Assembly: GCA_965219575.1 (NCBI GenBank)
Contig: OZ244779.1
Span: 1,228,769-1,292,768 of the forward strand
Length of the DNA stretch: 64,000 bases
DNA from: Candidatus Oxydemutatoraceae bacterium
Lineage (GTDB): Bacteria > Pseudomonadota > Gammaproteobacteria > Poriferisulfidales > Oxydemutatoraceae
Direction of reading: 5' to 3'
Shown here piece after piece: positions 1 to 27,300 of this stretch. How positions within the stretch are numbered: the stretch's first letter is position 1; the number at the start of each line of letters is the position of its first letter. Below the pieces are notes generated by a model. It did no database searches and had not been told where the DNA came from. It was given only the letters and a program-made list of their open reading frames with translations. The translations under genes and the position numbers were made by a program.

Positions 1-14
1 CACCGATTCGGAGA

Positions 15-896: not shown

Positions 897-1390
897 AATC
901 GGAGATATTCGGTTATACGCTGATAGAAGTGCTAGTCGTGGTTGCGATGCTTGCCGTTTTGACCGGTATGACGATAGTCCATACGATGCGCGATGTAGAT
1001 TTGCAGCTCGCCGAACTGGAGTTCCGCGAGCATTACCGCAAAGCCGAGAGTATATCGGTGTATGCGCGTAATTTACACACCGCAGGCTTTCGTTCGAGCG
1101 GCGACTTGAATATCGAGCAGCTACAAACTGCGACACGGGGCGGCGACCACGAGGTGCTTGCAAATGAGATTGCGCAAATAACCGCCGACCATGCAAGCGA
1201 TGATTTTAAGGTACGCTTTGCCGAAAAATATATACAAGTTAAATTTCTCGTTGCCGACGAAGTCGCGTCCGCCGGCTATCCGCTGCAAAGACGAAGCCTC
1301 AACGGAGACAAAGACGAAGTCTCGTTAAGAAGAATGATACAAGCCGAGCGCAGCCGCACCCTGAAGTTAAACGATTATTTGATGAATTGA
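893..1390 (+). CDS. Prepilin-type N-terminal cleavage/methylation domain protein (pilin/pseudopilin), 165 aa
   Basis: ATG at 893 overlaps the upstream stop (ATGA). MKSEIFG|YTLIEVLVVVAMLAVLTGM is a class III signal peptide with Gly at -1, Glu at +5 and a hydrophobic helix. The ORF-track start at 677 is over-extended. Confidence 0.85.
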   Translation: MKSEIFGYTLIEVLVVVAMLAVLTGMTIVHTMRDVDLQLAELEFREHYRKAESISVYARNLHTAGFRSSGDLNIEQLQTATRGGDHEVLANEIAQITADHASDDFKVRFAEKYIQVKFLVADEVASAGYPLQRRSLNGDKDEVSLRRMIQAERSRTLKLNDYLMN

Positions 1391-1393
1391 GGT

Positions 1394-2648: not shown

Positions 2649-3446
2649 ATGTGGCATGTGCAGGCGATACCGGCATTTGCGGATAACTATCTATGGCTGT
2701 TGAGCGGAGACGACGATAACCGTGCGGCAATCGTCGACCCCGGCGATGCCGTACCAATATTGGAAGTACTGCAAAAGAATGCACTCGAATTATCTGCGAT
2801 TTTGATTACCCACCACCATGCCGACCATATCGGCGGCGTGCAGCGGTTGACGGAGTGTTATTCCGGAGTACAAGTTTACGGCCCCGAAGATCCGCGTATT
2901 CCGATGGTTCGGCATGTGATGCGCGAACGGTCTCGTTTGACGCTTGATTTTTTGCAAGCCTCTTTCGAGGTGATGGAGGTGCCCGGTCATACGGCAACGC
3001 ATATTGCATACTACGCCGACGCATCCGATTCGACCGTGTCGCGACTATTTTGCGGCGACACCGTCTTTGCGTGCGGTTGCGGACGTCTGTTCGAAGGCAC
3101 ACCGGCACAGATGCACACATCGCTGAGTAAAATAAAAGCGTTGCCGCCTACAACCGAAATCTATTGTGCGCACGAATACACGCTCGATAATATTGAATTT
3201 GCAAAGTGGGTCGAACCCGACAATGCGAATTTATTAGCACGCGAACGAGAAGCGAAAGCACTGCGCAAAGTGGGCAGATATACGGTACCGTCGCAATTAG
3301 CCGATGAATGCGAAACCAATCCTTTTTTGCGTTTCGATCAACCCGATGTAATAAAAGCGGCGGAACGCTACGCCGGTCATGCCTTGAATACCGAGGCCGA
3401 AGTTTTCGCCGCGGTGCGTCATTGGAAAGATAACGAATTCGATTAA
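2649..3446 (+). CDS. gloB: Hydroxyacylglutathione hydrolase (glyoxalase II)
   Basis: IPAF.DNY.W, VDPGDA, THHHADHIGG metallo-beta-lactamase motif, VPGHT..HI, LFCGDT.F..GCGRLFEG, CAHEYT..N and ETNPFLR are all present. Confidence 0.96.
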   Translation: MWHVQAIPAFADNYLWLLSGDDDNRAAIVDPGDAVPILEVLQKNALELSAILITHHHADHIGGVQRLTECYSGVQVYGPEDPRIPMVRHVMRERSRLTLDFLQASFEVMEVPGHTATHIAYYADASDSTVSRLFCGDTVFACGCGRLFEGTPAQMHTSLSKIKALPPTTEIYCAHEYTLDNIEFAKWVEPDNANLLAREREAKALRKVGRYTVPSQLADECETNPFLRFDQPDVIKAAERYAGHALNTEAEVFAAVRHWKDNEFD

Positions 3447-9600: not shown

Positions 9601-12600
9601 GCAACCAAAGCCGGTGTACCGCAGGGTTTGTTCGGAGGCAATAGAGATCCGAACGATCAGCTCGCACCGACTGCCAAGGCAATTTATTTGGACAAAGATA
9701 TCTCTAGAATCGATGTGACTTTGGGAGAGAGTGAGCGCACCGTTGTGCTTCAATCACCGACGAGTGCCACCGGCATCTATAAAAACTGGGATAGCGATAG
9801 CTGGGATTTCGGCACCGCCGAGCAATATCCGGCGATCAAGTATAATTTGGATGCCGCTTCTACCGATGGTGACGCATATTGTGATGCGGTAAACATTCAA
9901 AAACGTCCCGATGCGTGCCGCACCGTGCTTCGTCATCAGGGTAGCCTGCTACAAGACTTAAAGTTATCCGAGGGCGCAGGTTTATCCGGTCCTTTTAGGT
10001 TCACATCGTTCGATTACGGTATATCGGTCAATGCCGATCGGAGTACTATTCGTATGTTGCCGACTGCGTTTAACGGAGTAGCGACGATTGAGGTTGTTAA
10101 GGATGGCAACATAATAGGAGAAACCGATAGCGGTGAATGGACGGCACCGATACCGTTGAACGACAGCGGCGATACGGTCGTCGGTTTGGTCGTAAAAGAC
10201 GGCAAACGACATTCGTACCGATACCGATTCGTTGTCAATCGCCTCGATATAGTAACTCAAAGTGTAGACGGCGACGGCGACGGACTCATAGATATTAGCG
10301 ATGCGACACATTTGAATGCCATCCGTCATCGCATCGACGGCAGTGCCTATCGAGAGAGCGAAACCGCCGAGGTGATCTACTGTTCCGGCAGTTGCACGGG
10401 GTATGAGCTGACTGCCGATATAGACCTTGCCGGCATCGAGTGGCAACCGATAGGTAGTCCGAATGAACCTTTTAGCGGTGTATTCAAAGGCAACGGCTAT
10501 ACGATTTCTAATTTGACCATAAAAGCAAATAACACCGACAATATAGGTCTATTCGCAGCGATCGGTGTCGGCGGCAGAGTCGAAAATCTCGGTTTGGTGA
10601 ATGTGGATATTGCCGGGCAGGGTCGTCGTATCGGTAGTATAGCCGCCTTCAACTCCGGCACGATTATCAATAGCTATGCCGACGGCAAGCTCGTAGATAG
10701 CGGCGGGAGCATCAATGTCGTCGGTGGTTTGGTCGGTAGAAACGAGCGCGGTGAAATCGTCAATAGCTATGCGCATGTCAACATAGAGGCAGCGACCGGT
10801 TTTGCGGGCGGTTTGGTCGGTGAGATTCAGGGGGGGTCCGTTGTTAATGGTTATGCCGGCGGCGATGTGCGAGTCGATAGCGGTATCGCGGGCGGTTTGG
10901 TGGGAACAAACGGCAGTCGAAGTTCAACTGTTAACGATAGCTATGCAGTCGGTGATGTGCAGGTCGGTAGCGGTAGAGCGGGAGGTTTGGTTGCGGCAAG
11001 CTCCGGCAGACAAACATTGAATAATAGTTACTATAGAAAGGGTGCGGTTATCTCCGGCACCGATTCACTGGTCGGCACCGATAAAACTGTAGCGGCACTT
11101 AAAGCCGGTGTGCCGTCGGATGATGTCTACACCGGCTGGAACACAACCGATTGGCACTTCGGCAATGCAGAGCAATATCCGGTCTTGCTTTATGTGGCAG
11201 GCGATGACAACGATCATCGTGCGTGCGCAACATCACCGACCGATACGGAATTGCCGACCTGCGGAACCTTGCTGCCCGGGCAGCGTGTCGGGCTGGCTCA
11301 AATGGAACTTTCAAAGAATGCCCGCTTGCTTCCGGCATTTAATCCCGAGATATACGATTATAATCTGGTCGTTCATTCGGGCACCACATTTCGTACCATA
11401 CCGATCGCCTATTACGACACCGATACGATTACCGTAGACGCTGCCGGCTTGCGCTCATCCACAACCGGTGGGCAAAGTTTGTTGTTCAAGCTAAACGACG
11501 ATTTGAACGGTATCGTAATCACGGTGAGATCCGCAAGTCATAATGTGCCGACACGCTATACGATTAAAGTACTGCACAGTATTGCGGTAGTAGATGGTTT
11601 GATATCGATCGATTATCTGGAAGACTTGAACCTGATGCGTAATCCTATAGAGCGGGTATCCGATATTCTGGAGGATTGCCCCATAGATACCGAAGACAAT
11701 GCGAGGCGGTGCAGGGGTTATGAATTGAGCAGAGACTTGGACTTTGAGGATCCTATGAGCTATCGCTCGGGTCGGGTCAACCCGATGTGGACGACCGGTG
11801 TCGGGTGGCAACCGATAGGAGACAGCAACAATCCCTTCGAATATTCGTTTAACGGCAATTCACACACGATATCGAATCTGAGGATCAACGATGTTGCCGT
11901 CGATAACATCGGTTTATTCGGTGTCTCGGCGGACGCTGCGAGAATTGAGAACATCGGCTTAGTCGCTGTGGATATCGATATCAACGGTCAATCCGGCATC
12001 GGTGCTTTGGTAGGTGAGAATCGCGGCACCGTCGTCAACAGCCATGTGGTAGGTGGTGATGTTCGTGGCAATTCTTCTGTAGGTGGATTGACCGGTAGGA
12101 ATTCGGGAGTAATCGTTAATAGCTACACGAATGTTGCGGTCGCCGGAACTAATTTTGTCGGCGGTCTAGCCGGTAGTAGCCAATCGGGTTCAAGAATCCA
12201 CAATAGCTATGCGAGTGGTACGGTCACCGGGAATGACTTCGTAGGAGGTTTGGTCGGCTTATTACAAGCAGGTATCTCGAATAGTTATGCAAATGTTGCG
12301 GTTATCGGAAATAAGTTTGTAGGGGGCTTGGTCGGTGGAGCGAGCAATAGTGTCATCAACAGTTATGCAATCGGCAAAATATCGGGTGATGGTGAGGGAT
12401 TAATAGGCGTTGTTTTGATCGATTTTTCCGCCATTCAAAGTTATTGGGATGTCGCTACGAGTACGGTGGGAGACGATAATAACGATCTCAACGGTATCGG
12501 CAAGACGACTTCGGATCTCCGAACAGCTGCGATCGGAGAGGGTATCTATAGCGGTTGGGGTAGCGACGATTGGTATTCCGAGACCGGTCGATATCCGCTA

Positions 12601-15600
12601 TTGAGATATACCGGTGCCACCGATATCATTGCTCGCCCGGCGTGTCGAGTCGCCGAAAATGTCGATAGCGAACTGCCGGTGTGTGGAACTTTGTTGCCAA
12701 ATCAGCGTATAGGCTTACGCAATCTAGCGCGCTCGAATAGGGTGGGTCAGGTTTTGCTATTAAGACCCGGCTTTGATTCCGGGATATACGATTACGAGTT
12801 GATATTAAAAAGCGATGCGCGTGAGTTCAGTATTATTCCGTATACGTTTAACCCGAATGCGGTCATCGTAGTCGACGACGATAGCGAAACGAATCCACAA
12901 CAAGAATTACGAAGTGGTAAAACGCTTAGCTTAATAATAGACAATCTCAACAATTCCTCGCTGACACTCACGGTGGAGGATCCTTTGGTATCCGGAGCGA
13001 CGCAAACGACGATCTATCGTTTTGAAGTAAGCAAACATCCTTTTATCACCACCGGCGATATAGACGACGACGACGACGGCTTGATCGAGATACGCAGCGT
13101 AGACGATCTGAATGCGATTCGTTATCAACCGGACGGTAGCGGTTATAAAGCGAGTCGCAACGATACTAAAATCACCGTAGGGTGTCCCGAGACCGGCTGC
13201 ATAGGTTATGAATTGGTGCAAGATCTGGATGTCGACGACGCAATGCGTTTTGCCGACTGGCAGCCGATAGGATATATCGCACCGAGCGGCGATGCCGATG
13301 AATGTAATCATCCGAGTAATCGGTGCTTTAGCGGGATATTCGACGGCAACAATCATACCATTTCAAATCTGCGTATCGATAAGAGCGATACCGACAATGT
13401 CGGCTTGTTTGCGGCATTAGCCGACGGTGCGCAAGTCAAAAATGTCAATCTGGCGAATGTGTCGGTCGAGGGTCGCTTCGGTGTCGGGAGTCTGGTCGCC
13501 TATAACGCCGGAGAGATAGACAACAGTTATGCCGACGGCACGATAACGGGAGAACGCGATGTCGGGGGATTGGTTGCCTACAATGTCGGTCGGATTTCCG
13601 ATAGTTATGCTTACGGTGCGGTATCGGGCGGTTCTTCGGTCGGCGGTTTGGTGGCTCGTAACGAAAGTGCCGGGGCGATTGCCAACAGCTATAGCTTGAG
13701 TCGTGTATCGGGCAATACCGGCATCGGCGGTTTGGTCGGTTTGAATCTCGGTTCTATTACAAACACTCATGCCAGCGGTGTTGTCGAGGGAAGCATGCGC
13801 ATCGGTGGTTTGGTCGGTGCCAACGGCGGTTCGGTCGCCGACAGTTATGCGACGGCGGATATACTATGCACCGGTGTGCCTATGTGTACTTCGTATACGG
13901 TTGCTACGGGCGGGCTGATCGGTAGCGATGTCGGTGGTGTTGTAGCAAATAGCTATTGGGATACCGGTGTGAGTAAGCTACGAGTATCCGCCGGCGGTGT
14001 CGGCAAAACTACCCTGCAACTGCAATCGGGCAGCGGTCAATCGTCGGATGCAAGCGGCGCGTATTACCGGTGGCGCGATAGCGACTGGTACTTCGGCACT
14101 GTAGATCAATATCCTATTCTTAAATATGCCGACAGTACCGAAAGCACGCTTGTCGGTTTGCAGTCTTATGGTTTGACAAGTTTGGCAATCGCAGAGATTG
14201 TGACGCTGTCTCCTAACTTTGACACGACTAAATTGTATTATCGTGTCGGCGTAGAATTGGATACCGATATAAGGAAATTACATTTGACACCGAATGCACT
14301 GGATGAGGATGCAACCATTCGCATCTTCAGCGATAACGGTTTCGACGAGACGGTTGCAAGCGGCACCGACAGTTCGGCGATTGTGTTGCGCTCGACCGGC
14401 ACAACGGTGATTAACATCGAAGTCTCGGGGGCACGGCGCGTCCTATATCGGTTTGAAGCAGATTATTTCTCTTCCGGTTTTGAAGACGATGTCGATACCG
14501 ACAAAGACGGATTGATAGATATTCTAAGCCTCGAGGATTTGGATGCGATACGCAATGCGCTCGACGGCAGACGGTTGAGATATCAAAATGCCGACGGCGT
14601 ATCGATAGAAAGTGCCAAAGGTTGTCCGATTAGCGGCTGCAAGGGCTATGAGTTGATGCGAGACTTGGACTTCGATAACCCGACACATTACCGAACGGGT
14701 CGCGTGAATACGGCATGGACCGGCGGGGCAGGCTGGCAGCCGATAGGCACCTCGCTATATCCGTTCACGGCAACATTCAAAGGCAACGGCTATACGATTT
14801 CTAATTTGAGGGTGAATAGACCGGATAGAGACGGCGGTTTATTCGGTGTGATAGACGGTAGCGAAAGCGATGTGGTAATAGAGGGTCTCGGTTTAATCGA
14901 TGTAGATATAGTCGGAGGTACGCATGTCGGCGGTTTGGTCGGCACCAACCGAGCGGGCGACATTCGCCGGAGCTATGTCACCGGTTATGTGGTGGCAAGA
15001 GGTGACGGCACATCGGCAATCGTCGGCGGTCTGGTCGGTAGAAATGTTGCCGGCTCGATCACCGAATCATACTCGCAGACACAGGTGAAAGGCAATCTAT
15101 CGGCCGGATTGTCGGTGGCATCGGCAGGTGGTTTGGTTGCTCTGAACGACAGTCGCGGTCGCATCGAGAATAGCTATGCGGTGGGGTCGGTGATCGGTCG
15201 CAACACCGTCGGCGGTTTGGTTGCTCTCAACCGAGACTCGAGCGAAATCATCGATAGCTACGCAATAAGCAGAACGATAGGCATCGGAGCGATATCTAAA
15301 GTAGGTGGCTTGGTTGCCGTCAACGATGCGGTGGTCGACGACAGTTACTGGGATATAGAGGTGAGTGGTATCGCATCGAGTGCCGGCGGCACTTCTGCGA
15401 CCACGGCAGTACTCCGATCGTCCACACCGATTTCACCGATCAATAGTATTTATAAAGACTGGGATACCGATGTATGGGAGTTCGCAGATACGAATCGTTA
15501 TCCCGAACTGAAAGCGATTGCCGATGTGCCGCTACTCGCTCCCGAAGGAAAAAGTCTGTTGCAAAGTCTGACCCTATCGGACAATGTCCGGTTATTCCCG

Positions 15601-18600
15601 TCTTTTCATCCGCTCGTTTTCGACTACGACCTGATAGCCGAGGCCGATCGAATGACCGAAGTACGGCTCGATACCACCTCGACGCGGATAGGCACGACAA
15701 TCGATATTACTTGTCGCAACGGCTTGATATGTTCGCCGGGTATTCCGACATCGTTTGTATTGGACGGTAGCGATACAGCGAAAATTACGATAACCACGCA
15801 TAATTCCGATGCCGGCGAATTATCGTATAGCTTCTCGGTGCGTTACCACGAACTAAAAATCGAACGAATGACGGCAACGACAACGACGATCGTGCCGTTG
15901 TCGTTGTCGGTAGCCGAAGGCGAGCGTGTTCGCTTAATGGCTTCGTATCATTTTAGTTTGGATGAAAATTTATATCGCTACCGCTGGCGACAATCGTCGG
16001 GCGATGTGCTGAAGTTCGACGATAAGCAATCGCCGGTTGATATGCAAAATGCGATGTTGGATTTTATGATACCCGACGATGTCGTGTCTAAGCAAGACGA
16101 TAGCCGTGTCGTGCAGTTGACAGCGGAAGTCAATGTGAACGACGACATCTATTTAAGCAAAATGTTATCGTTGATAATTTCCAAACGAAATAACGATACC
16201 GCCGATCGTATTCGCTTACTCGAAGATAGCGATCAACCGGATACTTATGCCGTTCGATTTGAAAGAGACGACGGTAGCGAGTTTGTAGACCGCGACGGCG
16301 GTTTTGCCGAAACCCGTATACACTGGCAGCGTCGTCGTAGCGATGCCGAAGATTGGGTTGATGTCGGGAACGGGTCTCCGTATACCATTCCCGACGAGGG
16401 TGCTTATCAATATCGCGCACTCGCTACATACAAGGATAATCAGGGTTATCGCGAACAATTTGAGTCCGGAGTCATAAACTATTTAGACCTAGACGACGAC
16501 GGCGACGGTCTGATAGAGATTCGTTATTTGGAAGAGTTGGATGCGATACGCCATCAGCCGGACGGTAGCGGCTATAAAGCGACTGCGAGTGCGGATAAGA
16601 TTACTGCGGGGTGTCCGTTGGTCAACGGTATCGAGCAATGCCGAGGCTACGAATTGATGAACGATTTGGATTTCAACGACGACCAAAGCTATCGTACGCT
16701 TGATCCGTCGCGACTCAAGAACAGCTGGACGGTGAGCGATTTCAGTGCTGCAAGCGATGCCGGTTGGCAACCTATCGGTAGGTTTAATGCCGTATTCGAC
16801 GGCAACGGTTATACGATATCGAATATACAGATAAACCGTAGTGTCGGCAATACAAGCAATATAGGCCTATTCTCCGATATGGGTTCGGGTGGAAAGGTTA
16901 AAAACTTGGGGCTTATAGACCCGGCGATCAAAGGTTTAGTCGGGATTAAAAATGTAGGCGGTATCGCCGGCAGAATAGAACGCGGCGGTGTCATCATCAA
17001 TAGCTATGTGGTCGGCGATGTCGGCGCGGGAAACACCGATAAAATAATAACCGGGGATGTCGGATCCGGTAGCAATAGAGGATTCATCGGCGGGCTGGTC
17101 GGCTGGAACAAAGGTTTCGTACTCAATAGTTATGCAAAGATCAATGTGACTGCCGAAGATTCCGGAACACAAGGAAACAAGCGGGTCGGCGTGGGCGGTT
17201 TGGTCGGTAGGAACATAGACGGCGGCAAGGTGTATAACAGCTATGCTACCGGTGAGGTGAAAGGACCCTGCATCGTCGGGGGTTTGGTAGGCAATCAGTA
17301 TTCCACCAACTCGAATCAGTTATTGACCCGCAGCGAGATCAAAAACAGTTATGCGACCGGCAATGTAGAGACCGGGTTCGGGACTTGCAGTAATTCGAAC
17401 AACAAAGTTGCCGCTGCTTTAGTCGGTGTTAATACTAATTCAAGAGTTGAAAATAGTTATACCCTAGGCAAAGTTTCCGGTAGTGGCACATTGTCCAATT
17501 TAATTGCCGGAGGGTCTGCCCCGATAAATAGTTATTGGGATAGCGGAACGACTAATGTAGGCGGTGATGTTAGCGACAGGACTACTGCGAAAATGATATC
17601 GACACTCAGACCGGGCACGGCGGAAACCGACATTTATTATCGATGGAGTACCGATGACTGGGATTTCGGTACTACAAAACAATATCCGGCACTCAAATAC
17701 GGGGTCGGATTGGATAAAGATGACCCGGGTTGCGACACCGATCCCGAGACGGCGTTGCCGAGCTGTGACTCCTTATTGCACGGTCAGATTGCCGATACGC
17801 TTTTGTTGGATCGGCTGAGTGTGTCCGCCAATTCGAGGGCTGTGCGGCTGACCCCGAACTTCATGCCGAGTAGATTTAACTACGAAGCGGTGATTGATGC
17901 CGAGACCGCACCGGTGCTTATAAAAATTGCCACCGGTGCCGGCGAAGATACCGCAATCACGATTCGTAAAGACGGCGGTTCACCTTTGACCAAGCAATCG
18001 GACGGCACCGTGCAGATTAGTACGAACGACTCGTTCAATCTCGGGATTAAGACCGCAAGCGGAGATGAAAGAGCGGCAAACTATCGAATACAAGTGCATC
18101 TGAGTTATTTGCCGCAACCGAGAATACTCGAAGTAACCAACGGGAGTAACCCTGCCGAATTAGTCAAAGGAAATATCCTTAGCTTAAACGAGGGGGATGT
18201 CGTCCGCCTCGATGCCTCGAAGAGTTTCGGGCCGAACAATTCACGGTTGGATTACCGATGGAGTCAAGTATCGGGGAAACCGTTACTGCCGGAAGTACAA
18301 ACCACATCTACAGTAGAGTTTACGGTGCCTGCCGATTTTGTCGCCGCAGACGAGAACGATAGCACGGTGATCCTACAACTAGAGCTGAGCGAAAACAATA
18401 ATCCGACATCTGCGGTGAGCAGAGAAATACGGCTATCGGTGAGGAAAATAAATAACGGCAATGCCGAGAGTAATGCGAAATGGATCAGTAGCGATACGCT
18501 TTCGGCAGGCGATCTATCAAACGATATAGACGGAGGTCCTCTAAGCGATATTGATTATCAATGGTCGTCGGAACAAAACGGTAGATTTGTCGCAATACTC

Positions 18601-20964
18601 GGTGCGACTCGAAAAAGCTATACGCCTCCCGAAAATGCCCGCAACGCACGATACAGAGTCTCTATAAGCTACACCGACGGACAAGGTTACCGAACGAACA
18701 CTCACTACGATGCACCGAGATTTACGACGATTGCCGACTTCGTCGATAAAGATAACGACGGTTTGATAGAGATCGAGACACTCGAGATGTTCGATGCGAT
18801 TCGTTATCAATTGGACGGTAGCGGTTATCGTGCAAACGCTATGGCGGGTAAGATTACTACGGGTTGCCCTTTGGTCAACGGTGTGGAGAAATGCCGAGGC
18901 TACGAATTAGTCCGAGACTTGGATTTTCTGGACGATGCCGGCTACGGTTCGACCGCCAATAAAGTGGTTTGGACGAGCGGCGCAGGTTGGCAACCGATCG
19001 GTAGTGTTGCCGACAATAACAATGGATGTAGTGACTCGGCTAGCGGCTGTTTTGCCGCTATTTTGGAAGGCAACGGATATCGCATTTCCAATTTGTGGAT
19101 CGATAGAGAGCGTAGCGATAATGTAGGCATGTTTGCCGGAAATACCGGCACCATTCGTAATCTCGGGTTATCGATGATAGAAGTAACAGGCAATTCGAGG
19201 GTCGGTGGTTTGGTCGGTCGCAACGAAGGTGAACTAATGAGTATTCATATAGTCGAAGGCAAGGTTGCCGGGCAAAACAACATTATCGGTCTGTTAACCG
19301 GCATCGGCGTGTCGGGGTCGTCGATTACCGATAGTTATGTAAACGGCACCGTTGTAGGTTCTCGTTTTGTCGGTGGCCTCTGTGGCATAAATTACGGTGG
19401 CATTATCGGTGGCTATGCGGTTGCCGATGTTTCGGCACGGCGCGATGCAGGCGGTTTGGTCGGCGAGAATCAAGGAACTATCGGCAACAGCTATGCGGCG
19501 GGTTCGGTCGGCATCGGTGAGAAAAAACGAGCTGTCGGAGGTTTAGTCGGCACATTATGGTGGGGCGGTCGTGTCGTTGACAGCTACTCGACTGCCGAGG
19601 TAAGAACGACCTTTGTTGCGACAGCCGCCGACGATGCACAATATGTAGGTGGTTTAATCGGCAACCGGGCGTCACCCGGCCTGCAAGTCAATAATAGTTA
19701 TTGGGATACCAATGCGAGTGGGCGGACGGACTCTCCCGGAGGCGGTGTCGGCAAGACCCGGGCTGAATTGCAAATGCCGACGGTAGCCGGGACAAGGGTC
19801 GATGCTATTTATTACAACTGGGATAACTACAGATGGGATTTCGGCACTTCGGAGGAGTATCCGGTTCTCAAATATCACGATAACTCGTGTGGCACTTCGA
19901 CACCGTCACCGGATTGCGGTAAATTATTGCTGCATCAACGCGTTGGCTTGAGGGCTTTAGCGTTGGAGCAGAATGTGGAAGGAGAGCGGTTGTATCTTGC
20001 TCCCGATTTTGACTCTGCGATTACGACTTATACGGTGTCGGTGCACGCCGATGCGAGCGAGTTGAGAATCACCCCGACAGCGGCTAATCCCGATGCCGAT
20101 ATCGTAGCCGACGGCAAGGTTTTATCGGGAGACCACAGCGGCTATACCATTGCGATAGACACTTCCAAGCCTATGTCCACGGTCATCAAAGTTGCGGCGA
20201 GCAATTCGATGGGAACGGAGCATCCCATCGCCTACAAATTGACGGTGGGCAATCGTTTACCTACGATAGATATTAACGCGCCTGCTTCGATAAGCGAAGG
20301 CGGAACCCTTGTATTAAATACTTCTATAACCGATGCCGACGGAGACGAGTTGCGTTACAGTCTGAGTGCGATTACCGACTTATTGCCGAATTCAAAGGAG
20401 ATGACCGGCACTGCGGTAGGTGGTGCCGATCTAGTGTACGAGCTTGATATACCGAGTGATTTGCTCGGTGACAGGCAAAGCAGCGATGATATAGACATCG
20501 TGTTGACGGTTGAGGATGGCATGAGCGTTATCAATGAAACGGTGTCGATAACGATAATCAAAAAGGACAACGGTATGGTATCGGTTGCTACGCCGACGCT
20601 GGATGGTTTCACATACACCGTCGGAGATATAGATTTATCGTCGGATGGCGACGGAATAAATCCTGTTCCCGAGATAGCCTACCAATGGCAAAAGGAACTG
20701 TTGGGTGGCTGGTCGGATATCGACGGTGCCACCGATCGGAGTCATACCGCGGAGGGTATTATAGGTGACCGCTACCGCGTATTGGTCGACTATATCGATA
20801 AGCAGGGCTATAGATATCGGCGCGTTGCATCGCCGTCGGTATCGGCACCGCAGCAATTTATATATAATGCCGTGAGATCTAGGAGTGCGGTAAGAGCTTT
20901 GACGGATCGGGCACCGGGTATTTTCATACACATCAGAGTATTCCCCGAAGGACTGTTACTTTAA
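3646..20964 (+). CDS. Giant secreted repetitive surface protein 1 (5772 aa): GLUG-type beta-helix modules with cadherin-like beta-sandwich and Ig/PKD-like domains; putative adhesin
   Basis: Uninterrupted 17.3-kb ORF. Signal peptide MKLLFISTFIVVTGLLQPVSA|QD. Ten modules begin near 3739, 6100, 7381, 8848, 10267, 11593, 13057, 14488, 16486 and 18745, with the pattern DxDxDGL(I/V)(E/D)I..L.AIR...YEL..DLDF...W.PIG...F.GNG.TI.NL, VGGLVG.N..I.NSYA rungs, SYW, WDFG...YP.LKY, then an L.P.F....Y beta-sandwich. Adhesin function is inferred. Confidence 0.9.
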   Translation: MKLLFISTFIVVTGLLQPVSAQDTFECNYTTDIDQDKDGLIELCDLDALDAVRYQLDGSGYRESFDAVKITAGCPPSGCNGYELRRDLDFNIEDSYRDLANKAAWTSGSGWLPIGDRLNFFAARFEGNGHTIANLYIDRPSDYVGLFRATSTPAKISDLILSQINIKGNSYVGGLAGHNAGSVAYVGVEGGRLIATGNTVGGLFGANAGTILNGDVMLERLESRGHSLGGLVGHNEGHVTYSVADTGLFGVSQVGGLVGLNARGVLTDSRSDGTANGSDYIGGLVGLNHARISASYAIGKVISEGSYSGGLVGANDRGGRIADSRASGTVSGNLYAGGLVGWNRDSEITNSFALNRVDGNSDVGGLVGWNEGGRISNTYSSGSVNGMHRVGGLVGSNKGIVSDSFANGRVVASGVNTGGLIGWNYAHQTRDATTVRVIHSYWNSNTVGISLSAGGSPRTTEQLQSPTAPGLLGETFERWDVADWDFGTDEQYPILKHSEGSNTGHLLSGQYIMLSGLLVLDGLTLSPAFDPQTFDYRVHLSDDNLRQIRFSPTIANSTQTISVLKDEKTGLPSVNNGETVTVDLNGVPEPTLVTIARHYRIRVVHQSALQVKIGSNRSDYRVSEGQDIVFDVSTSEPDLRRVRYRWSQVSPLQPDLLTDSDTGLAELNIDIPDDFVARDNDESPVVLRVEVRVDETTVVRNTTMTVVKTNNGGISTLAAPTYREGTLTVADISEADLSMEPDGGVDPSSLSYRWQYKLPSASASWHDIEDATQIHYQIPFVLSAIDNVGYRVWLDYDDNQGYYHRIVSEPRSAMRVVADDGFSDIYYLEDLNAIRNQPNGKYELVRDLDFNSDASYRDPINKAKWTVADYENDADAGWLPIGTIANRFTGTFEGHGHAIFNLQINRDTADYQGLFGVSGSAATVRNVGLPNVKIEGNRYIGGVVGSSGGTIVGSYILGKVSANSFLGGLVGENDGRIINSYAGVVASALNRQLGDLVGINRGSITNSYATGNVEGVSAGSLVGQNFSAGSITNSYAIGRVQGSGGGLAATNEGVIRASYWNTETGGLQGRNGSGRTTQQMQLPTAAIGIYESWDNADWDFGNSAQYPILKYAPGPDGDACGVSGLPQCGALISPRLRYGLRSLATAGGVALAPEFDIEVQNRSGIYIGSLRSTDNTIRLIPTTIEPTADIRFYIGDDNTVYDHIRSGETSKAISLKTNFTTRIHIEVQGMLTVGYTLYIDHRNTAEFTAINYLEDLRAIHRQPGGSYKLARNLDFEDSKSYLDPLNRILWTVDDYNDAGDTGWVPIGNESKPFAGRFDGNGYTISGLQINRDDADNQSLFGVAASSAVISNIGLLNVKIEGGTQAAGLVGTNRGRVVHSHVGGSVRSKNMAGVIGGLVANNDGGDIIGSYALGRVSGISSVGGLVGDNNGRVINSRTDSIVTPDSGGSRFGGLVGRNRSLIANSYASGKILTKSSIKGGLVGWNDSQARIVNGYAAVDIVGAVAGGLVGYNRGAIKNSYAIGELRSTGNAIGSLIGANDGGTSVASYWNSDTIVAGSRNGIGQTTTQLKSPTAPGLPGETFESWDVADWDFGTFEQYPTLKYAPGSDGTACGLSGLPQCGDLISPGLRYGLHSLSTAGNARFFTPIDIEKLNQNNVYSITILNDRPSVRLTPVAIESTARISIIGSVRETLDSHDTSLPISLKNDEVKKVIIEVEGTRTVRYTLYLSYANYKLIDEDGDSLVDIDYLEDLDAIRYQLDGSGYRASIGSAKITSGCPRQGCRGYELSRDLDFNDAGSYRNAEENMGRWTGAGTWFPIGGTFTATFKGNNKTIANLSMGVNGGLFSAIGSDSRVARIDGIGLTGVDIKGNAVAGIAASCKRCTISNSYVIGDIQGTAAAAGLVNTIGATSGGRARISNSYFVGNIAVDGRSSVAGGLVGDVDSDLTITDSYVVGEISGEHNGGFIGGLVGVRSSSVIEIGNSYASVSATKAGVPQGLFGGNRDPNDQLAPTAKAIYLDKDISRIDVTLGESERTVVLQSPTSATGIYKNWDSDSWDFGTAEQYPAIKYNLDAASTDGDAYCDAVNIQKRPDACRTVLRHQGSLLQDLKLSEGAGLSGPFRFTSFDYGISVNADRSTIRMLPTAFNGVATIEVVKDGNIIGETDSGEWTAPIPLNDSGDTVVGLVVKDGKRHSYRYRFVVNRLDIVTQSVDGDGDGLIDISDATHLNAIRHRIDGSAYRESETAEVIYCSGSCTGYELTADIDLAGIEWQPIGSPNEPFSGVFKGNGYTISNLTIKANNTDNIGLFAAIGVGGRVENLGLVNVDIAGQGRRIGSIAAFNSGTIINSYADGKLVDSGGSINVVGGLVGRNERGEIVNSYAHVNIEAATGFAGGLVGEIQGGSVVNGYAGGDVRVDSGIAGGLVGTNGSRSSTVNDSYAVGDVQVGSGRAGGLVAASSGRQTLNNSYYRKGAVISGTDSLVGTDKTVAALKAGVPSDDVYTGWNTTDWHFGNAEQYPVLLYVAGDDNDHRACATSPTDTELPTCGTLLPGQRVGLAQMELSKNARLLPAFNPEIYDYNLVVHSGTTFRTIPIAYYDTDTITVDAAGLRSSTTGGQSLLFKLNDDLNGIVITVRSASHNVPTRYTIKVLHSIAVVDGLISIDYLEDLNLMRNPIERVSDILEDCPIDTEDNARRCRGYELSRDLDFEDPMSYRSGRVNPMWTTGVGWQPIGDSNNPFEYSFNGNSHTISNLRINDVAVDNIGLFGVSADAARIENIGLVAVDIDINGQSGIGALVGENRGTVVNSHVVGGDVRGNSSVGGLTGRNSGVIVNSYTNVAVAGTNFVGGLAGSSQSGSRIHNSYASGTVTGNDFVGGLVGLLQAGISNSYANVAVIGNKFVGGLVGGASNSVINSYAIGKISGDGEGLIGVVLIDFSAIQSYWDVATSTVGDDNNDLNGIGKTTSDLRTAAIGEGIYSGWGSDDWYSETGRYPLLRYTGATDIIARPACRVAENVDSELPVCGTLLPNQRIGLRNLARSNRVGQVLLLRPGFDSGIYDYELILKSDAREFSIIPYTFNPNAVIVVDDDSETNPQQELRSGKTLSLIIDNLNNSSLTLTVEDPLVSGATQTTIYRFEVSKHPFITTGDIDDDDDGLIEIRSVDDLNAIRYQPDGSGYKASRNDTKITVGCPETGCIGYELVQDLDVDDAMRFADWQPIGYIAPSGDADECNHPSNRCFSGIFDGNNHTISNLRIDKSDTDNVGLFAALADGAQVKNVNLANVSVEGRFGVGSLVAYNAGEIDNSYADGTITGERDVGGLVAYNVGRISDSYAYGAVSGGSSVGGLVARNESAGAIANSYSLSRVSGNTGIGGLVGLNLGSITNTHASGVVEGSMRIGGLVGANGGSVADSYATADILCTGVPMCTSYTVATGGLIGSDVGGVVANSYWDTGVSKLRVSAGGVGKTTLQLQSGSGQSSDASGAYYRWRDSDWYFGTVDQYPILKYADSTESTLVGLQSYGLTSLAIAEIVTLSPNFDTTKLYYRVGVELDTDIRKLHLTPNALDEDATIRIFSDNGFDETVASGTDSSAIVLRSTGTTVINIEVSGARRVLYRFEADYFSSGFEDDVDTDKDGLIDILSLEDLDAIRNALDGRRLRYQNADGVSIESAKGCPISGCKGYELMRDLDFDNPTHYRTGRVNTAWTGGAGWQPIGTSLYPFTATFKGNGYTISNLRVNRPDRDGGLFGVIDGSESDVVIEGLGLIDVDIVGGTHVGGLVGTNRAGDIRRSYVTGYVVARGDGTSAIVGGLVGRNVAGSITESYSQTQVKGNLSAGLSVASAGGLVALNDSRGRIENSYAVGSVIGRNTVGGLVALNRDSSEIIDSYAISRTIGIGAISKVGGLVAVNDAVVDDSYWDIEVSGIASSAGGTSATTAVLRSSTPISPINSIYKDWDTDVWEFADTNRYPELKAIADVPLLAPEGKSLLQSLTLSDNVRLFPSFHPLVFDYDLIAEADRMTEVRLDTTSTRIGTTIDITCRNGLICSPGIPTSFVLDGSDTAKITITTHNSDAGELSYSFSVRYHELKIERMTATTTTIVPLSLSVAEGERVRLMASYHFSLDENLYRYRWRQSSGDVLKFDDKQSPVDMQNAMLDFMIPDDVVSKQDDSRVVQLTAEVNVNDDIYLSKMLSLIISKRNNDTADRIRLLEDSDQPDTYAVRFERDDGSEFVDRDGGFAETRIHWQRRRSDAEDWVDVGNGSPYTIPDEGAYQYRALATYKDNQGYREQFESGVINYLDLDDDGDGLIEIRYLEELDAIRHQPDGSGYKATASADKITAGCPLVNGIEQCRGYELMNDLDFNDDQSYRTLDPSRLKNSWTVSDFSAASDAGWQPIGRFNAVFDGNGYTISNIQINRSVGNTSNIGLFSDMGSGGKVKNLGLIDPAIKGLVGIKNVGGIAGRIERGGVIINSYVVGDVGAGNTDKIITGDVGSGSNRGFIGGLVGWNKGFVLNSYAKINVTAEDSGTQGNKRVGVGGLVGRNIDGGKVYNSYATGEVKGPCIVGGLVGNQYSTNSNQLLTRSEIKNSYATGNVETGFGTCSNSNNKVAAALVGVNTNSRVENSYTLGKVSGSGTLSNLIAGGSAPINSYWDSGTTNVGGDVSDRTTAKMISTLRPGTAETDIYYRWSTDDWDFGTTKQYPALKYGVGLDKDDPGCDTDPETALPSCDSLLHGQIADTLLLDRLSVSANSRAVRLTPNFMPSRFNYEAVIDAETAPVLIKIATGAGEDTAITIRKDGGSPLTKQSDGTVQISTNDSFNLGIKTASGDERAANYRIQVHLSYLPQPRILEVTNGSNPAELVKGNILSLNEGDVVRLDASKSFGPNNSRLDYRWSQVSGKPLLPEVQTTSTVEFTVPADFVAADENDSTVILQLELSENNNPTSAVSREIRLSVRKINNGNAESNAKWISSDTLSAGDLSNDIDGGPLSDIDYQWSSEQNGRFVAILGATRKSYTPPENARNARYRVSISYTDGQGYRTNTHYDAPRFTTIADFVDKDNDGLIEIETLEMFDAIRYQLDGSGYRANAMAGKITTGCPLVNGVEKCRGYELVRDLDFLDDAGYGSTANKVVWTSGAGWQPIGSVADNNNGCSDSASGCFAAILEGNGYRISNLWIDRERSDNVGMFAGNTGTIRNLGLSMIEVTGNSRVGGLVGRNEGELMSIHIVEGKVAGQNNIIGLLTGIGVSGSSITDSYVNGTVVGSRFVGGLCGINYGGIIGGYAVADVSARRDAGGLVGENQGTIGNSYAAGSVGIGEKKRAVGGLVGTLWWGGRVVDSYSTAEVRTTFVATAADDAQYVGGLIGNRASPGLQVNNSYWDTNASGRTDSPGGGVGKTRAELQMPTVAGTRVDAIYYNWDNYRWDFGTSEEYPVLKYHDNSCGTSTPSPDCGKLLLHQRVGLRALALEQNVEGERLYLAPDFDSAITTYTVSVHADASELRITPTAANPDADIVADGKVLSGDHSGYTIAIDTSKPMSTVIKVAASNSMGTEHPIAYKLTVGNRLPTIDINAPASISEGGTLVLNTSITDADGDELRYSLSAITDLLPNSKEMTGTAVGGADLVYELDIPSDLLGDRQSSDDIDIVLTVEDGMSVINETVSITIIKKDNGMVSVATPTLDGFTYTVGDIDLSSDGDGINPVPEIAYQWQKELLGGWSDIDGATDRSHTAEGIIGDRYRVLVDYIDKQGYRYRRVASPSVSAPQQFIYNAVRSRSAVRALTDRAPGIFIHIRVFPEGLLL

Positions 20965-21332: not shown

Positions 21333-24300
21333 GTGAAGCCACTTCCTTTATCTACTATTGTTGTAGTTATAGGGTTCTTGCAGTCCGTATCGGCTCAAGA
21401 TGTGTTTGAGTGCGATTACACAACCGATATAGATCAAGACAAAGACGGCTTGATAGAGCTATGCGATTTGGATGCACTCGATGCGGTTCGCTATCAGCTC
21501 GACGGCAGCGGTTATAGAGAAAGTTTCGATGCGGTCAAGATAACCGCCGGGTGTCCCCCGAGCGGTTGCAACGGCTACGAGTTGCGTAAAGATTTGGATT
21601 TCAATGCCGATGATAGCTATCGCGATCTCGCCAACAAAGCAGCATGGACGAGCGGTCTAGGTTGGTTGCCGATAGGCACTCGGCTCAACTTCTTTACTGC
21701 GAGGTTCGAAGGCAACGGTCATACGATAGCCAATCTTTATATCGATAGACCGTCGGATTATGTCGGTTTATTCAGGGCGACTTCGACGCCGGCTAAAATA
21801 AGCGACCTGATATTGTCGCAAATAAACATCAAAGGAAACTCGTATGTCGGTGGTTTAGCGGGTCATAACGCCGGTAGCGTCGCTTATGTCGGTGTCGAAG
21901 GCGGTCGCCTAATCGCTACGGGCAACACCGTAGGCGGGTTGTTCGGTGCCAACGCCGGGACAATACTCAACGGCGATGTCATGCTCGAGCGTTTAGAGAG
22001 TCGCGGGCATAGTCTCGGCGGTCTGGTCGGTCATAACGAGGGGCATGTTACTTATAGTGTTGCCGATACCGGTTTATTCGGTGTCAGCCAAGTCGGAGGC
22101 TTGGTCGGTCTCAATGCTCGCGGTGTATTGACCGACAGTCGCTCCGACGGGACTGCGAATGGGAGCGATTATATCGGTGGTTTGGTCGGTCTCAATCATG
22201 CTCGGATTAGTGCGAGCTATGCGATCGGCAAAGTGATAAGCGAGGGTTCGTATAGCGGTGGCTTGGTCGGTGCCAACGACCGTGGCGGTAGAATTGCCGA
22301 TAGTCGGGCGAGCGGTACGGTTTCCGGCAATCTCTATGCGGGCGGTCTGGTCGGTTGGAATAGGGACAGTGAGATCACCAATAGTTTTGCGCTTAATCGT
22401 GTAGACGGCAATAGCGATGTAGGCGGTCTGGTTGGCTGGAACGAGGGCGGTCGAATAAGCAATACCTATTCAAGCGGTTCTGTCAACGGGATGCATAGAG
22501 TCGGTGGTTTGGTCGGCAGTAATAAAGGCATCGTTTCCGACAGTTTTGCAAACGGACGCGTTGTCGCAAGCGGTGTAAATACAGGTGGTTTGATCGGCTG
22601 GAATTATGCCCATCAGACCAGAGATGCCACCACGGTGCGTGTGATACACAGCTATTGGAATAGCAACACTGTCGGGATATCGCTCAGTGCCGGTGGAAGT
22701 CCTCGGACTACCGAACAGCTACAATCACCGACTGCGCCCGGTCTACTCGGTGAGACTTTCGAGAGATGGGATGTTGCCGATTGGGATTTCGGCACCGACG
22801 AACAATACCCGATACTCAAACACAGCGAAGGTTCTAATACGGGACACCTATTGTCGGGTCAATACATTATGCTGTCGGGTCTGCTGGTATTGGACGGGTT
22901 AACTTTATCTCCGGCGTTTGATCCGCAAACCTTCGACTATCGCGTACACCTAAGCGACGATAACTTAAGACAAATAAGGTTCAGTCCTACGATAGCGAAT
23001 AGCACGCAAACGATTAGTGTTCTCAAAGACGAGAAAACCGGTTTGCCGTCGGTGAACAACGGCGAGACGGTGACGGTCGATTTGAATGGTGTTCCCGAGC
23101 CGACCTTGGTGACGATAGCGAGGCACTATCGGATCCGAGTGGTGCATCAATCCGCCTTGCAAGTAAAGATCGGTAGCAATCGCTCGGATTACAGGGTGAG
23201 CGAAGGACAAGATATTGTATTCGATGTTTCAACCTCCGAGCCGGACTTGCGGCGAGTGCGCTATCGCTGGAGTCAGGTTTCACCGCTGCAACCCGATTTA
23301 TTAACGGACTCGGACACCGGCTTAGCCGAGTTGAACATCGATATACCCGACGATTTTGTAGCTCGAGATAACGACGAAAGCCCTGTTGTATTGCGAGTGG
23401 AAGTACGCGTCGATGAGACAACCGTAGTTCGCAATACGACGATGACGGTCGTCAAAACGAATAACGGCGGTATAAGCACCTTAGCTGCCCCGACCTATCG
23501 CGAAGGCACCCTGACGGTGGCGGATATAAGCGAAGCCGATTTATCTATGGAGCCCGACGGCGGTGTCGATCCGAGCAGCTTGAGCTACCGGTGGCAGTAC
23601 AAGCTACCGTCGGCTTCCGCATCATGGCACGATATTGAAGATGCGACGCAAATACACTATCAGATACCTTTTGTATTATCGGCAATCGATAATGTCGGCT
23701 ATCGTGTATGGCTGGATTATGATGATAATCAGGGTTACTATCACCGCATCGTATCCGAACCACGATCGGCTATGCGTGTTGTAGCAGATGACGGTTTTAG
23801 CGACATCTATTATCTGGAGGATTTGAATGCGATACGCAATCAACCGAACGGCAAATACAAATTAGTCCGAGATTTGGATTTCAATTCGGATGCGAGCTAC
23901 CGCGACCCGATCAATAAAGCGAAGTGGACGGTAGCCGATTACGGCAACGATGCGGACACCGGCTGGTTGCCCATAGGCACGATCGTAAATCGTTTCACGG
24001 GCACTTTCGACGGCAACGGTCATACGATATCCAATTTGCAAATTAATAGAGATACTGCCGACTATCAAGGTTTATTCGGTGCTGTGGGATCTGCGGCTAG
24101 CCTAAGAAATGTAGGCTTGTCTAATGCAAGGATAGAAGGGAAGCAAAATATCGGTGGGCTCGCCGGAGGCAACTTCGGCACGATTATCAATAGTTATGCA
24201 AATGATAGTGATATGTCGGCAACATCTATTGTCGGTGGGCTTGTAGGCTGGAACGGTATTCCTGCGCGTATCATCAATAGCTATGCCGGTGGTGATGTCG

Positions 24301-27300
24301 GAGGTATTAGCATCGGTGGTTTGGTCGGCTTTAACGAAGGGTCTATAACCAACAGCTATGCAATGACAAATGTTGAAGGAAGTTTGGCGGGTAGTTTGGT
24401 GGGTCCGATGCCTACCGGCTCAATCACCGATAGTTATGCTATCGGTCGGGTGCAAGGAAGCGGCGGTGGTTTAGCTGCAACCAATGGAGGAGTCATCAGC
24501 GCAAGCTATTGGAACACCGAGACCGGCGGTTTACAAGGTCGTCATGGCAGCGGTCGAACTACGCAACAAATGCAATTGCCTACTGCGGCGATCGGGATAT
24601 ACGAAACGTGGGACGATGCCGATTGGGATTTCGGCAACAGCGTGCAGTATCCGATCCTCAAATACGCACCGGGACCCGACGGCGATGCGTGCAGTGTGTC
24701 GGGATTGCCGCAGTGCGGTGCGTTGATATCGCCGCGCCTGCGCTACGGTTTGCGTAGCTTGGCAACGGCGGGCGGTGTTGCCTTAGCTCCCGAGTTCGAT
24801 ATCGAAGTACAAAACCGAAGCGGTATTTATATCGGTAGTCTGCGCAGTACCGATAACACGATACGGTTGATTCCGACGACGATAGAACCGACTGCGGATA
24901 TTCGTTTCTATATCGGCGACGATGAGACCGCGTACGACACTATCCGAAGCGGCGAGACGAGTAAGGCAATTTCTTTGAAAGCAGTCGGTACGACACGTAT
25001 TCGCATCGAGGTACGAGGAACGGTAACCGTCGGTTATACGCTGTACATCGATCATCGAAACGCTGCCGGGTTCACGTCGATCAATTATCTGGAAGACTTG
25101 CGTGCGATACATCGGCATCCGAAAGGTGCTTATAAGTTGGCTAGGGACTTGGATTTTGAAGATAGCGAAAGTTATCTGGATCCGCTGAACAGGATTTTTT
25201 GGACGGTAGACGACTACGAGGATGCCGGCGATACAGGTTGGGTGCCCGTAGGCAGCGAGTCGATACCTTTCGCCGGTCGCTTCGACGGCAACGGTTATAC
25301 GATATCGGGTTTGCAGATCAATAGAGACGATGCCGACAATCAAAGTTTATTCGGTGTTGCGGCATCTAGTGCCGTTATAAGCAACATCGGCTTGTTGAAC
25401 CTAAAAATAGAGGGTGGCACCAAAGTTGCCGGACTGGTCGGCACCAACCGAGGGCAAGTCGGCTACAGCTATGTCGGTGGCAGTATTGAATCGGAAAGTA
25501 TCGAGGGCATAGCCGGCGGTTTGGTCGCAAACAACGACGGCGGAGACATTATCGGCAGTTATGCGCTAAGTCAAGTTTCCGGGATTGCATCGCTCGGTGG
25601 TCTGGTCGGAGATAACAACGGCAGGATTATCAATAGTCATGCCGATAGTATCGTGATGCCGAGTTCGGCAGGCTCGCGTTTCGGTGGTTTGGTGGGCAGT
25701 AATCGGAGTCTAATTGTCAATAGTTATGCAAGCGGTAAGATTTTGCAAGGAAGGAGTAGTTCTATTAAAGGAGGTCTGGTCGGCTGGAATGACTCACAAG
25801 CACGGATCATTAACGGTTATGCGGCGGTCGGTATTGCCGGTGCTTTAGCAGGCGGACTGGTTGGATATAACCTGGGTGCTATAAAAAATAGTTATGCGAT
25901 CGGTGAACTGAGCGGTGGCAGCGACACAAGAGGTAGTCTGGTCGGCATCAACGATGGCGGCACATTTGTCGCAAGCTACTGGAATAGCGATACCATCGCA
26001 AGCGGAGGCAACAACGGTATCGGGCAGACTTCGGCACAGCTTCAATCGCAGACCCCGACGATGCCGGCGAATAGCATTTATAAAGACTGGGATACCGGCG
26101 ATTGGGATTTCGGGACACCGCAACAATACCCGATACTCAAATATACCACTGCAACCGAAAGTGTTTTTGAGTGTGGTTCATCGGGAATGCCGCAATGTGG
26201 CGATTTAATATCACCGGGTTTTCGCTACGGCTTGCGTAGCTTGACATCGACGAACGATGCGACATTGTCTCCACCGATCGATATTGAAAGGCTCAACCAA
26301 AGCGGTATTTATTTAGGCACGGTGATCGCAGAACATCCGAGTGTACGCTTGACCCCGGTTGCAATCGAATCAACTGCGCGTATTCGCATTATAGGAGATA
26401 GACGAGAAACCCTAGATAGCAACAATACGAGTTTCCCGACTTTGCTGAAAAATGACGAAGTAAAAAAAGTGATTATCGAAGTAGCAGGCACACGGACGGT
26501 CGGATATACGCTTTATTTGAGCTACTCCGGTCATAGGGTCATCGATGAAGACGGCGACGGTCTCGTCGATATCGATTATCTGGAGGATTTGGATGCGATC
26601 CGCCATCGGTTGGACGGTAGCGGCTATAGAGCGAATGTCGAGGCGGTCAAGATCACATCGGGCTGTCCTAGGCAAGGATGTCGCGGTTATGAATTGTCGA
26701 GAGACTTGGACTTTAACGATGCCGACAGCTATCGCAACGCCGAAGAGAATATGGGTCGCTGGACGGGTTCAGGTGCTTGGCAACCTATAGCAGGAACCTT
26801 CACCGGCACATTCAAGGGCAATAATAAAACGATTGCCAATTTAAGGGTGAGGTCCAGCGGTGGTTTGTTTACTGCGATAGGTAGCGATAGTCGTGTTGCC
26901 TATATAGACGGTATCGGATTATTGGCGGTGGATATCAAAGGGGATACGGTTGCCGGGATTACCGCATCGTGTAAGCGGTGTACGATAAGCAATAGTTATG
27001 TGATAGGAAATATAGAGGGAACCGCCGCTGCCGCCGGTTTGGTAAATACTATTAGTGCAACGAGTGGCGGGAATGCACGAATTAGCAACAGTTATTTCGT
27101 CGGTGATATTGCCGTCAACGGTGAATCGGCGGTTGCCGGCGGTTTGGTCGGCGATGTAGATTCCGCTTTGAGCATCACCGACAGCTATGCGTTCGGTGAT
27201 GTTATCGGAAAGCAGAATAGCGGATTTATAGGCGGCTTGGTCGGGGTGCGTTCATCGTCTGTTATTGAAATCGGCAACAGCTATGCGGGTATTTCGGCAA

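Follow-up and report, generated by a model that had tools for sequence, protein, structure and literature searches.

The window analyzed here is a 64,000-nucleotide stretch of contig OZ244779.1 from a Candidatus Oxydemutatoraceae bacterium, and our subject is the short tail at the C-termini of the giant proteins that it encodes, a candidate sorting tag. Four tandem paralogous genes of ~17.4 kb (g1–g4) on the + strand occupy ~60 of the 64 kb (3646–64000; Table 1), and the GC skew is positive in every 2-kb bin (0.04–0.19). The products of g1–g3 share 78–88% pairwise identity over their length, and the encoded part of g4 is identical, at 1810 of 1810 residues, to the start of a 5916-amino acid (aa) database protein (P0015); this full-length copy of g4 has the C-terminus FIHIRVLPEGLLR. 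According to Pfam, the giants contain many GLUG motifs and cadherin-like β-sandwich domains, along with weak PKD-like and Peptidase_M26_N-like stretches. All four start with a Sec-type signal peptide ending in VSA directly before QD; signal peptides were judged by eye throughout.

The C-terminal end of all three complete giants is (I/S)FIH(I/V)RVFPEGLL(L/R). An earlier note on this DNA had reported a tail shared by the three complete proteins, and rereading the ends of g1, g2 and g3 bore this out, together with the coordinates and linker strings that it gave. The back-translated pattern xRVF[PL]EG[LF][LF]x-stop produced 3 matches in the window, all at the g1–g3 ends, and 0 matches in any of 100 dinucleotide-preserving shuffles of it. 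Because g1–g3 are close paralogs, a tail conserved among them is weak evidence by itself, and the weight of the evidence comes from relatives elsewhere.

Table 1 Features of the window, with positions counted from its first nucleotide
Feature	Position	Strand	Description
Giant gene g1	3646–20964	+	5772 aa; Sec signal peptide, GLUG-motif arrays, cadherin-like and PKD-like domains, C-terminal tag
g1 signal peptide	3646–3708	+	MKLLFISTFIVVTGLLQPVSA, followed by QD; read by eye
g1 Arg-rich linker	20869–20919	+	AVRSRSAVRALTDRAPG; between last folded domain and tag
g1 C-terminal tag	20920–20961	+	IFIHIRVFPEGLLL; stop codon 20962–20964
Giant gene g2	21333–38750	+	5805 aa; architecture as in g1
g2 C-terminal tag	38706–38747	+	SFIHIRVFPEGLLR; preceded by linker VVRTRSVVRSSSDLEPA
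Giant gene g3	38909–56218	+	5769 aa counted from GTG
g3 likely start	ATG 38942	+	followed by signal peptide MNISARFLLLLITVLWTSVSA
g3 C-terminal tag	56174–56215	+	IFIHVRVFPEGLLR; preceded by linker ALKSRSAVRDLVGRQPG
Giant gene g4	58569–64000	+	cut by window end
Type IV-filament-like operon end	3–2290	+	upstream of the giant array
PilC/GspF/ComGB-like platform protein	3–896		weak matches, far below cut-offs
Prepilin-like open reading frame 1	starts near 890		with MKSEIFGYTLIEVLVVVA
Prepilin-like open reading frame 2	1394–2290		with QCGFTLIETLITVA; matches the N_methyl/TIGR02532 model
gloB	2649–3446		between the type IV-filament-like operon end and the giant array
Unassigned 155-aa open reading frame	56445–56912	-	adjoins the ISNCY transposase gene
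ISNCY-family transposase gene	56815–58125	-	between g3 and g4; 399 bits vs cut-off 250

Three types of protein were found to carry the tail, namely the giants, S8 subtilases with a P-domain and a He_PIG immunoglobulin (Ig) domain, and a 419-aa type represented by P0029. The tagged non-giants occur in metagenome-assembled genomes (MAGs) titled Candidatus Porisulfidus and among related metagenomic proteins. A search of 5.77 billion proteins with a profile of 40-residue ends (A4) listed 18 matches at E ≤ 10 among 5,934 candidates, comprising 8 giant fragments, 6 subtilase-type proteins (P0026, P0030, P0031, P0033, P0034 and P0035) and 4 proteins of the P0029 type (P0027, P0028, P0029 and P0032). 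Intact members of all three types possess a Sec signal peptide, as seen in g1–g4, P0014, P0016, P0018, P0034 and P0029. Specifically, P0034 (769 aa) consists of a signal peptide, Peptidase_S8 (residues 119–412), P_proprotein (462–550) and He_PIG (671–751), with the tag lying beyond this last domain and the protein ending in GPL-IIYTQVRVYLEGLLR. P0029 also begins with a signal peptide and has the C-terminus RPQLASASNGVTIQVQVRVLLEGLLD; it has no Pfam or NCBIfam match and no PDB relative at E ≤ 1.

Using hhalign on the three family profiles, we obtained one match per pair, in each case the C-terminal stretch: giants and subtilases aligned over 27 columns (E 4.7e-5), the P0029 type and giants at E 1.4e-4, and the P0029 type and subtilases over 23 columns (E 6.4e-4). 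BLASTP of P0029 against P0034 likewise returned the tail as the best segment, with 10 of 15 residues identical. The tail is located at the extreme C-terminus of unrelated proteins whose intact members have signal peptides, as the earlier note had expected of a sorting signal, and the restriction to close paralogs that would have spoken against one is contradicted by the tagged subtilases and the P0029 type. Equal base counts assign P0029, P0032 and P0034 to one contig of 2,878,237 bases together with the giants at loci L012 and L017, and P0031 to a contig of 323,079 bases together with the giant fragment P0023.

Composition was counted over 27 distinct tails, derived from 36 sequences, with positions numbered from the C-terminus. 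Position −14 holds I in 23 tails, V in 3 and S in 1; −13 is F, Q, S, Y or A; −12 is I (13), V (9) or T (5); −11 is Q (14), H (7) or N (6); −10 is I (13), V (11) or L (3); and −9 is R (25) or K (2). Position −8 is V in all 27, followed by F (19), L (5) or Y (3) at −7 and by L (14) or P (13) at −6. E at −5 and G at −4 are invariant, −3 is L (25) or F (2), −2 is L in every tail, and −1 is R (20), P (3), D (2), L (1) or N (1). The alternation of I/V at −14, −12, −10 and −8 with Q/H/N and R/K resembles the pattern of an amphipathic β-strand; after this strand-like stretch come an aromatic residue or Leu, L or P, the invariant E-G, L-L and one free last residue. The resulting consensus is x-[IV]-x-[IVT]-[QHN]-[IVL]-[RK]-V-[FYL]-[LP]-E-G-L-L-x-COOH. 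Across 58,326 stored residues, the core [RK]V[FYL][LP]EG occurs 30 times; all 30 copies close a protein, always with three further residues, no more and no fewer, behind the Gly, and no internal copy was found.

Searches of protein and genome collections placed the tail in a single lineage. Word-based searches with the 49-aa end yielded 3 matches out of 40 candidates among proteins of 87–2000 aa and 6 out of 8 among proteins of 3174–10101 aa, and all of these matches belong to the giant family. A HMMER search restricted to the tail (35-column profile, 1.84 billion representatives) gave 3 matches at E ≤ 0.001, two of which are members of the giant family with the variant tails IFVNIRVLLEGLLP and ISVQVRVFLEGLLR; the search was blind to the tag on unrelated proteins, because a 14-residue match alone cannot reach the threshold. 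The third match, a 6888-aa T/S-rich protein, was rejected as spurious, with only linker columns 8–23 aligned.

We then scanned DNA for xRVF[PL]EG[LF][LF]x-stop in one genome per species, covering 185,579 species, and found 21 loci. Three MAG records with the title 'uncultured candidatus Porisulfidus' (OZ244052.1, CBDAVG010000002.1 and OZ241323.1) account for twelve of these. Ten of the twelve are ends of giant genes, with frames of at least 3343 codons that stay open as far as the edge of the locus, and two belong to other genes, L010 ending in FAFAVDPYTIQTQLRVFLEGFLP and L019 ending in ASASNGVTIQVQVRVFLEGLLD. The nine loci outside Ca. Porisulfidus were rejected as chance matches, with frames of 0–100 codons or antisense frames, and two of them terminate in TGG and not in a stop. 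The two longest rejected frames, L016 (339 codons) and L018 (125 codons), run antisense to a ferredoxin/FAD oxidoreductase gene and to a TPR gene, respectively, both of which contain Pfam domains, and have no domain of their own. Within this collection, long genuine open reading frames ending in the strict motif occur only in Ca. Porisulfidus; by our own rough estimate, fewer than one real protein would be expected to end in the motif by chance. The window's own tails (FIHIRVFPEGLL) are absent from the scanned genomes, so that the species of the window must be related to, and distinct from, the three with tagged loci.

In these searches, the motif turned up in this lineage alone and always at C-termini, and the K/R-V-F-L-E-G strand that the earlier note mentions for other large secreted proteins gained no support outside it. 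A PDB search with the tail profile brought up nothing beyond a 9-residue match (AIHIRV) that recurs in a fucose-binding lectin and is ascribed to chance, and the texts reached by a full-text literature search on motif core strings yielded nothing on a bacterial sorting motif. Porisulfidus is listed among known gammaproteobacterial sponge symbionts in one paper (PMC12988363) and served as outgroup to SUP05 in another (PMC9123188).

Several features of the loci outside the window deserve mention. Giant arrays of at least 3 and at least 5 genes with ~18 kb spacing occur in related MAGs. Further giant genes lie downstream of tagged ones in L009 (3–9641, − strand) and L017 (10921–20031, + strand), and their ends were missed by the strict pattern; some giants must therefore have variant tails or be truncated. 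Variant tails such as RVLLEGLL and RVLPEGLL are present in P0015, P0017 and P0025. The tagged gene of L010 (10004–10810, − strand, OZ244052.1) is of the subtilase type and looks degraded: a good signal peptide, MKNYITILFVLLGTHLYA, follows from an ATG behind AGGAGG in a frame that stops after ~41 codons, and the tag-bearing stretch is in another frame, without an S8 domain. L019 (8259–12048, CBDAVG010000002.1) contains a P0029-type copy, truncated at the N-terminus (179 vs 419 aa), directly after a gene for an MltF-like lytic transglycosylase and near an IS110 transposase gene.

A shared 3′ end could in principle be a by-product of DNA exchange, such as a 3′-end cassette, a repeat or a terminator-linked element, and be without any role at the peptide level. 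Tandem arrays such as those of the giants are prone to gene conversion, insertion sequence (IS) elements are found nearby, and in some copies a stem-loop directly follows the stop codon. The codons point the other way. Among codon pairs of the core in 13 giant tails, 28.4% differ synonymously and 8.3% nonsynonymously, and the nonsynonymous-to-synonymous ratio is 0.29 in the core, against 3.2 for the linker and 0.75 for the domain before it. Between families, codon positions 1 and 2 are 64–86% identical, whereas third positions are near random (21–50%), the 40 bases after the stop are only 17–35% identical, and DNA similarity within the window fades a few bases past the stop codon. Because of this codon pattern and the unrelated downstream DNA, a DNA cassette, a repeat or recent gene conversion fails to explain the shared tail; selection acts on the tag as a peptide and not on the DNA. 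The codon and flank comparisons largely refute DNA exchange as the origin of the tail, which we regard as very improbable. In a separate observation, the invariant tag Arg is encoded by AGA in 13 of 13 DNA copies (window positions 20935, 38721 and 56189 and ten locus tails), a constancy that contrasts with the synonymous variation in neighboring codons. The stem-loop is the GC-rich CCCCTCC-TTTG-GAGGGG in L009 and L017, with a similar one in L003; it is not present after g1 and g2.

The strand-like alternation of the tail would also suit a structural element without any signaling role, either a cap or an integral strand needed to complete the last folded domain. An Ig-like or otherwise β-rich domain precedes the tail in two of the three families, and the low quality of the giants' model at this end leaves room for packing against it. 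Nevertheless, the preceding domains are unrelated across the families, with hhalign aligning the tail alone, and the spacer before the tag ranges from ~3 residues in the subtilases through ~10 in the P0029 type to 17–18 in the giants. Profile coverage of He_PIG stops before the tail. AlphaFold2 modeled P0031 with a complete He_PIG Ig domain (predicted local distance difference test (pLDDT) ~77–81, last strand 285–295) and rendered the tag (299–312) as low-confidence coil (pLDDT 27–29). In this sole confidently folded context, the model leaves the tail out of the preceding Ig domain, contrary to the integral strand that, according to the earlier note, would have told against its proposal. The giants themselves contain one internal copy of their last domain (Y-x-W...GAT...YRV...YTDxQGY; g1 ~5009, g2 ~5044, g3 ~5010), which continues into the next module without a tail. 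Taken together, a purely structural role seems improbable. The module following the internal copy starts with DKDNDGLIEIETL and resembles an EF-hand or dockerin-type Ca-binding loop; the same motif is also found after the signal peptide. An origin of the tail as the decayed start of such a repeat module (DKDNDGLIEI...) was considered and dropped, the resemblance being loose and the subtilases having no such modules.

A third alternative accepts a common C-terminal tag and gives it a role other than sorting, either as a site for recognition or removal by a periplasmic C-terminal processing protease of the S41/PDZ kind (maturation or turnover) or as a 'zipper' strand through which different exoproteins would co-assemble in one surface matrix or attach to one host ligand. 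The fixed C-terminal register is what PDZ domains and other readers of free C-termini would call for, and the alternating I/V-Q pattern is of a kind that may form intermolecular sheets. Furthermore, the tagged gene in L010 is adjoined by a convergent gene (7955–9220, + strand) for a PDZ-bearing C-terminal processing peptidase of the S41 type (TIGR00225, 310 bits), a possible reader of C-termini that is adjacent at this one locus only. However, PDZ domains and tail-specific proteases as a rule prefer a hydrophobic last residue, and here that residue is R, P, D, N or L. In addition, S41 proteases are housekeeping genes, and none of our results points to tag cleavage or co-assembly. We consider this alternative rather unlikely.

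The tag is modular, strictly C-terminal, selected as a peptide and common to unrelated Sec-type proteins of one lineage. Unrelated exported carriers, a strict C-terminal position and peptide-level selection are the properties by which a C-terminal sorting tag can be defined operationally, and all three were observed. We lean toward the view that the tail is a lineage-restricted C-terminal sorting or surface-anchoring tag, without a transmembrane segment, that would act after Sec export. The cargo supports a sorting role, because its mix matches that of known C-terminal sorting systems: proteases together with giant adhesin-like proteins are also the cargo of the PEP-CTERM, GlyGly-CTERM and type IX secretion systems (T9SS). 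Regarding the sorting signal proposed in the earlier note, the unrelated exported cargo and the strict C-terminal position lend it partial support, while the strand-donation mechanism and the partner that it invoked gained no supporting result. Sorting or anchoring as the role, strand binding and a dedicated partner are what we infer from these features.

In the mechanism that we envisage, the cargo (giant GLUG/cadherin-like proteins of the adhesin type, S8 subtilases and the third type) would cross the inner membrane by means of its signal peptide. A lineage-specific factor would bind the exposed tag in the periplasm or at the outer membrane, probably edge to edge by β-augmentation, and would then send the cargo out of the cell or hold it on the surface. 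More tentatively, and as a possibility that we do not hold to be the probable one, the gammaproteobacterial sponge symbionts of the Ca. Porisulfidus lineage could possess a hitherto unrecognized pathway for export or surface anchoring after Sec, in which the 14-residue tag is read by strand pairing, through a dedicated outer-membrane or periplasmic receptor (e.g., an Omp85-type or PDZ-bearing secretion component) or through the type IV-filament-like machine encoded upstream of the array. The neighbors of tagged genes encode porin O/P, threonyl-tRNA synthetase, the S41 protease and an MltF-like protein or are IS elements, and one giant array is followed by genes for porin O/P and a coiled-coil membrane protein.

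Several points weigh against a sorting or anchoring tag. No partner was found, and the genes adjoining tagged genes differ between loci, with none conserved. The tag is known on only three protein types, one of which, the P0029 type, is possibly a remote S8-like peptidase (Atlas 0.92, 150 shared features, weak; GTSLA motif), so that the independent contexts could be counted as two and a half. The copies in L010 and L019 are degraded, and since profile A4 held one member per family, these two included, its retrieval of those families was partly by construction. The ten loci used for the codon counts had been selected with a pattern whose core is fixed, so that core conservation is inflated; in protein searches without a fixed core, the core was still present in every relative found. 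As for the models, the alignment behind that of P0031 comprised 6 sequences only (mean pLDDT 57.6), and AlphaFold2 prediction of the last 243 residues of g1 gave pLDDT < 50 at 113–243, which is uninformative on the tail.

From its sequence, the tag appears to be a signal of the C-terminal sorting kind that falls outside every family tested. For LPXTG, PEP-CTERM, GlyGly-CTERM and the T9SS C-terminal domain (CTD), the tag has in every case opened the way to a machine dedicated to export or anchoring, and to our knowledge all known C-terminal sorting tags are either three-part signals that include a membrane helix or entire folded domains. The present tag is unusually short for the address label of an exported protein. 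If our reading is correct, a 14-residue tag with neither helix nor domain would point to a new way of addressing Sec-exported proteins to the Gram-negative surface. It would also give access to the question of how proteins of ~5,800 residues are displayed by an uncultured sponge symbiont. Should the more tentative pathway prove right, the tag would make up a class of bacterial sorting signals of its own and be the first linear signal by which folded giant adhesins and proteases are moved through the proteobacterial outer membrane. The motif can serve as a search key with which to list this lineage's secreted and surface proteins and, via phylogenetic profiling, to look for the partner.

Finally, we compared the tag with known C-terminal signals. 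The NCBIfam library includes models for C-terminal sorting signals of the PEP-CTERM kind, and none of the C-terminal sorting-domain models in Pfam or NCBIfam matched any tagged protein at E ≤ 1; against these two libraries, the statement in the earlier note that known sorting signals do not match the tail is upheld. The tail has no transmembrane helix, no basic cluster and no terminal aromatic residue.

Giant RTX adhesins exported by type I secretion (T1SS), which are also thousands of residues long, likewise have a C-terminal signal that stays uncleaved. T1SS cargo, however, lacks a Sec signal peptide, and the signal peptides of g1–g4, P0034 and P0029 argue against this route; the only T1SS-related match was sub-threshold (12.9 bits vs a cut-off of 66), and Pfam reported no RTX repeats in the giants. 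The β-signal of the β-barrel assembly machinery (BAM) resembles the tail as a C-terminal amphipathic β-strand-like peptide that would be read by strand pairing, but it ends in an aromatic residue and belongs to β-barrels. Here the last residue is variable, the cargo is made of soluble domains without any barrel or porin domain found by Pfam, and the BAM β-signal is ruled out by the missing terminal aromatic residue. Ligands of PDZ domains (tail-specific/Ctp proteases, DegS and GspC of the type II secretion system) share the extreme C-terminal location and the fixed register, and binding by β-augmentation is plausible; the tag differs from them in its variable, often charged last residue.

T9SS CTDs are folded β-sandwich domains of ~70–100 residues and are not known outside Bacteroidota and their kin. 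They are comparable as β-type, post-Sec C-terminal signals on proteases and giant surface proteins, whereas the tag comprises 14 residues, matches neither the type A nor the type B CTD models and shares an element of only 14–27 columns between families. Moreover, its host records bear the title of a genus that one paper lists as gammaproteobacterial (PMC12988363). Signals of the LPXTG, PEP-CTERM and GlyGly-CTERM types are ruled out because the tail has neither a membrane helix nor a basic cluster. There is no LPXTG motif and no model match over the tail, and no sortase-like enzyme was identified for the tag. Models of rhombosortase- and myxosortase-dependent M36 proteins scored far below their cut-offs (17–20 bits vs 1500–1700), on internal Ig-like regions (242–411 of 500-residue pieces) and not on the tail. 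The last 35 residues also contain neither GG nor a hydrophobic run long enough for a helix, and [LP]EG is followed by L-L-x only. With PEP-CTERM/exosortase and GlyGly-CTERM/rhombosortase, the tag nevertheless shares the organization of a lineage-restricted C-terminal element that follows a variable spacer on heterogeneous Sec-exported cargo, both proteases and very large adhesin-like proteins, and it differs from them in placing only three residues after E-G where those signals have a helix and a basic cluster.

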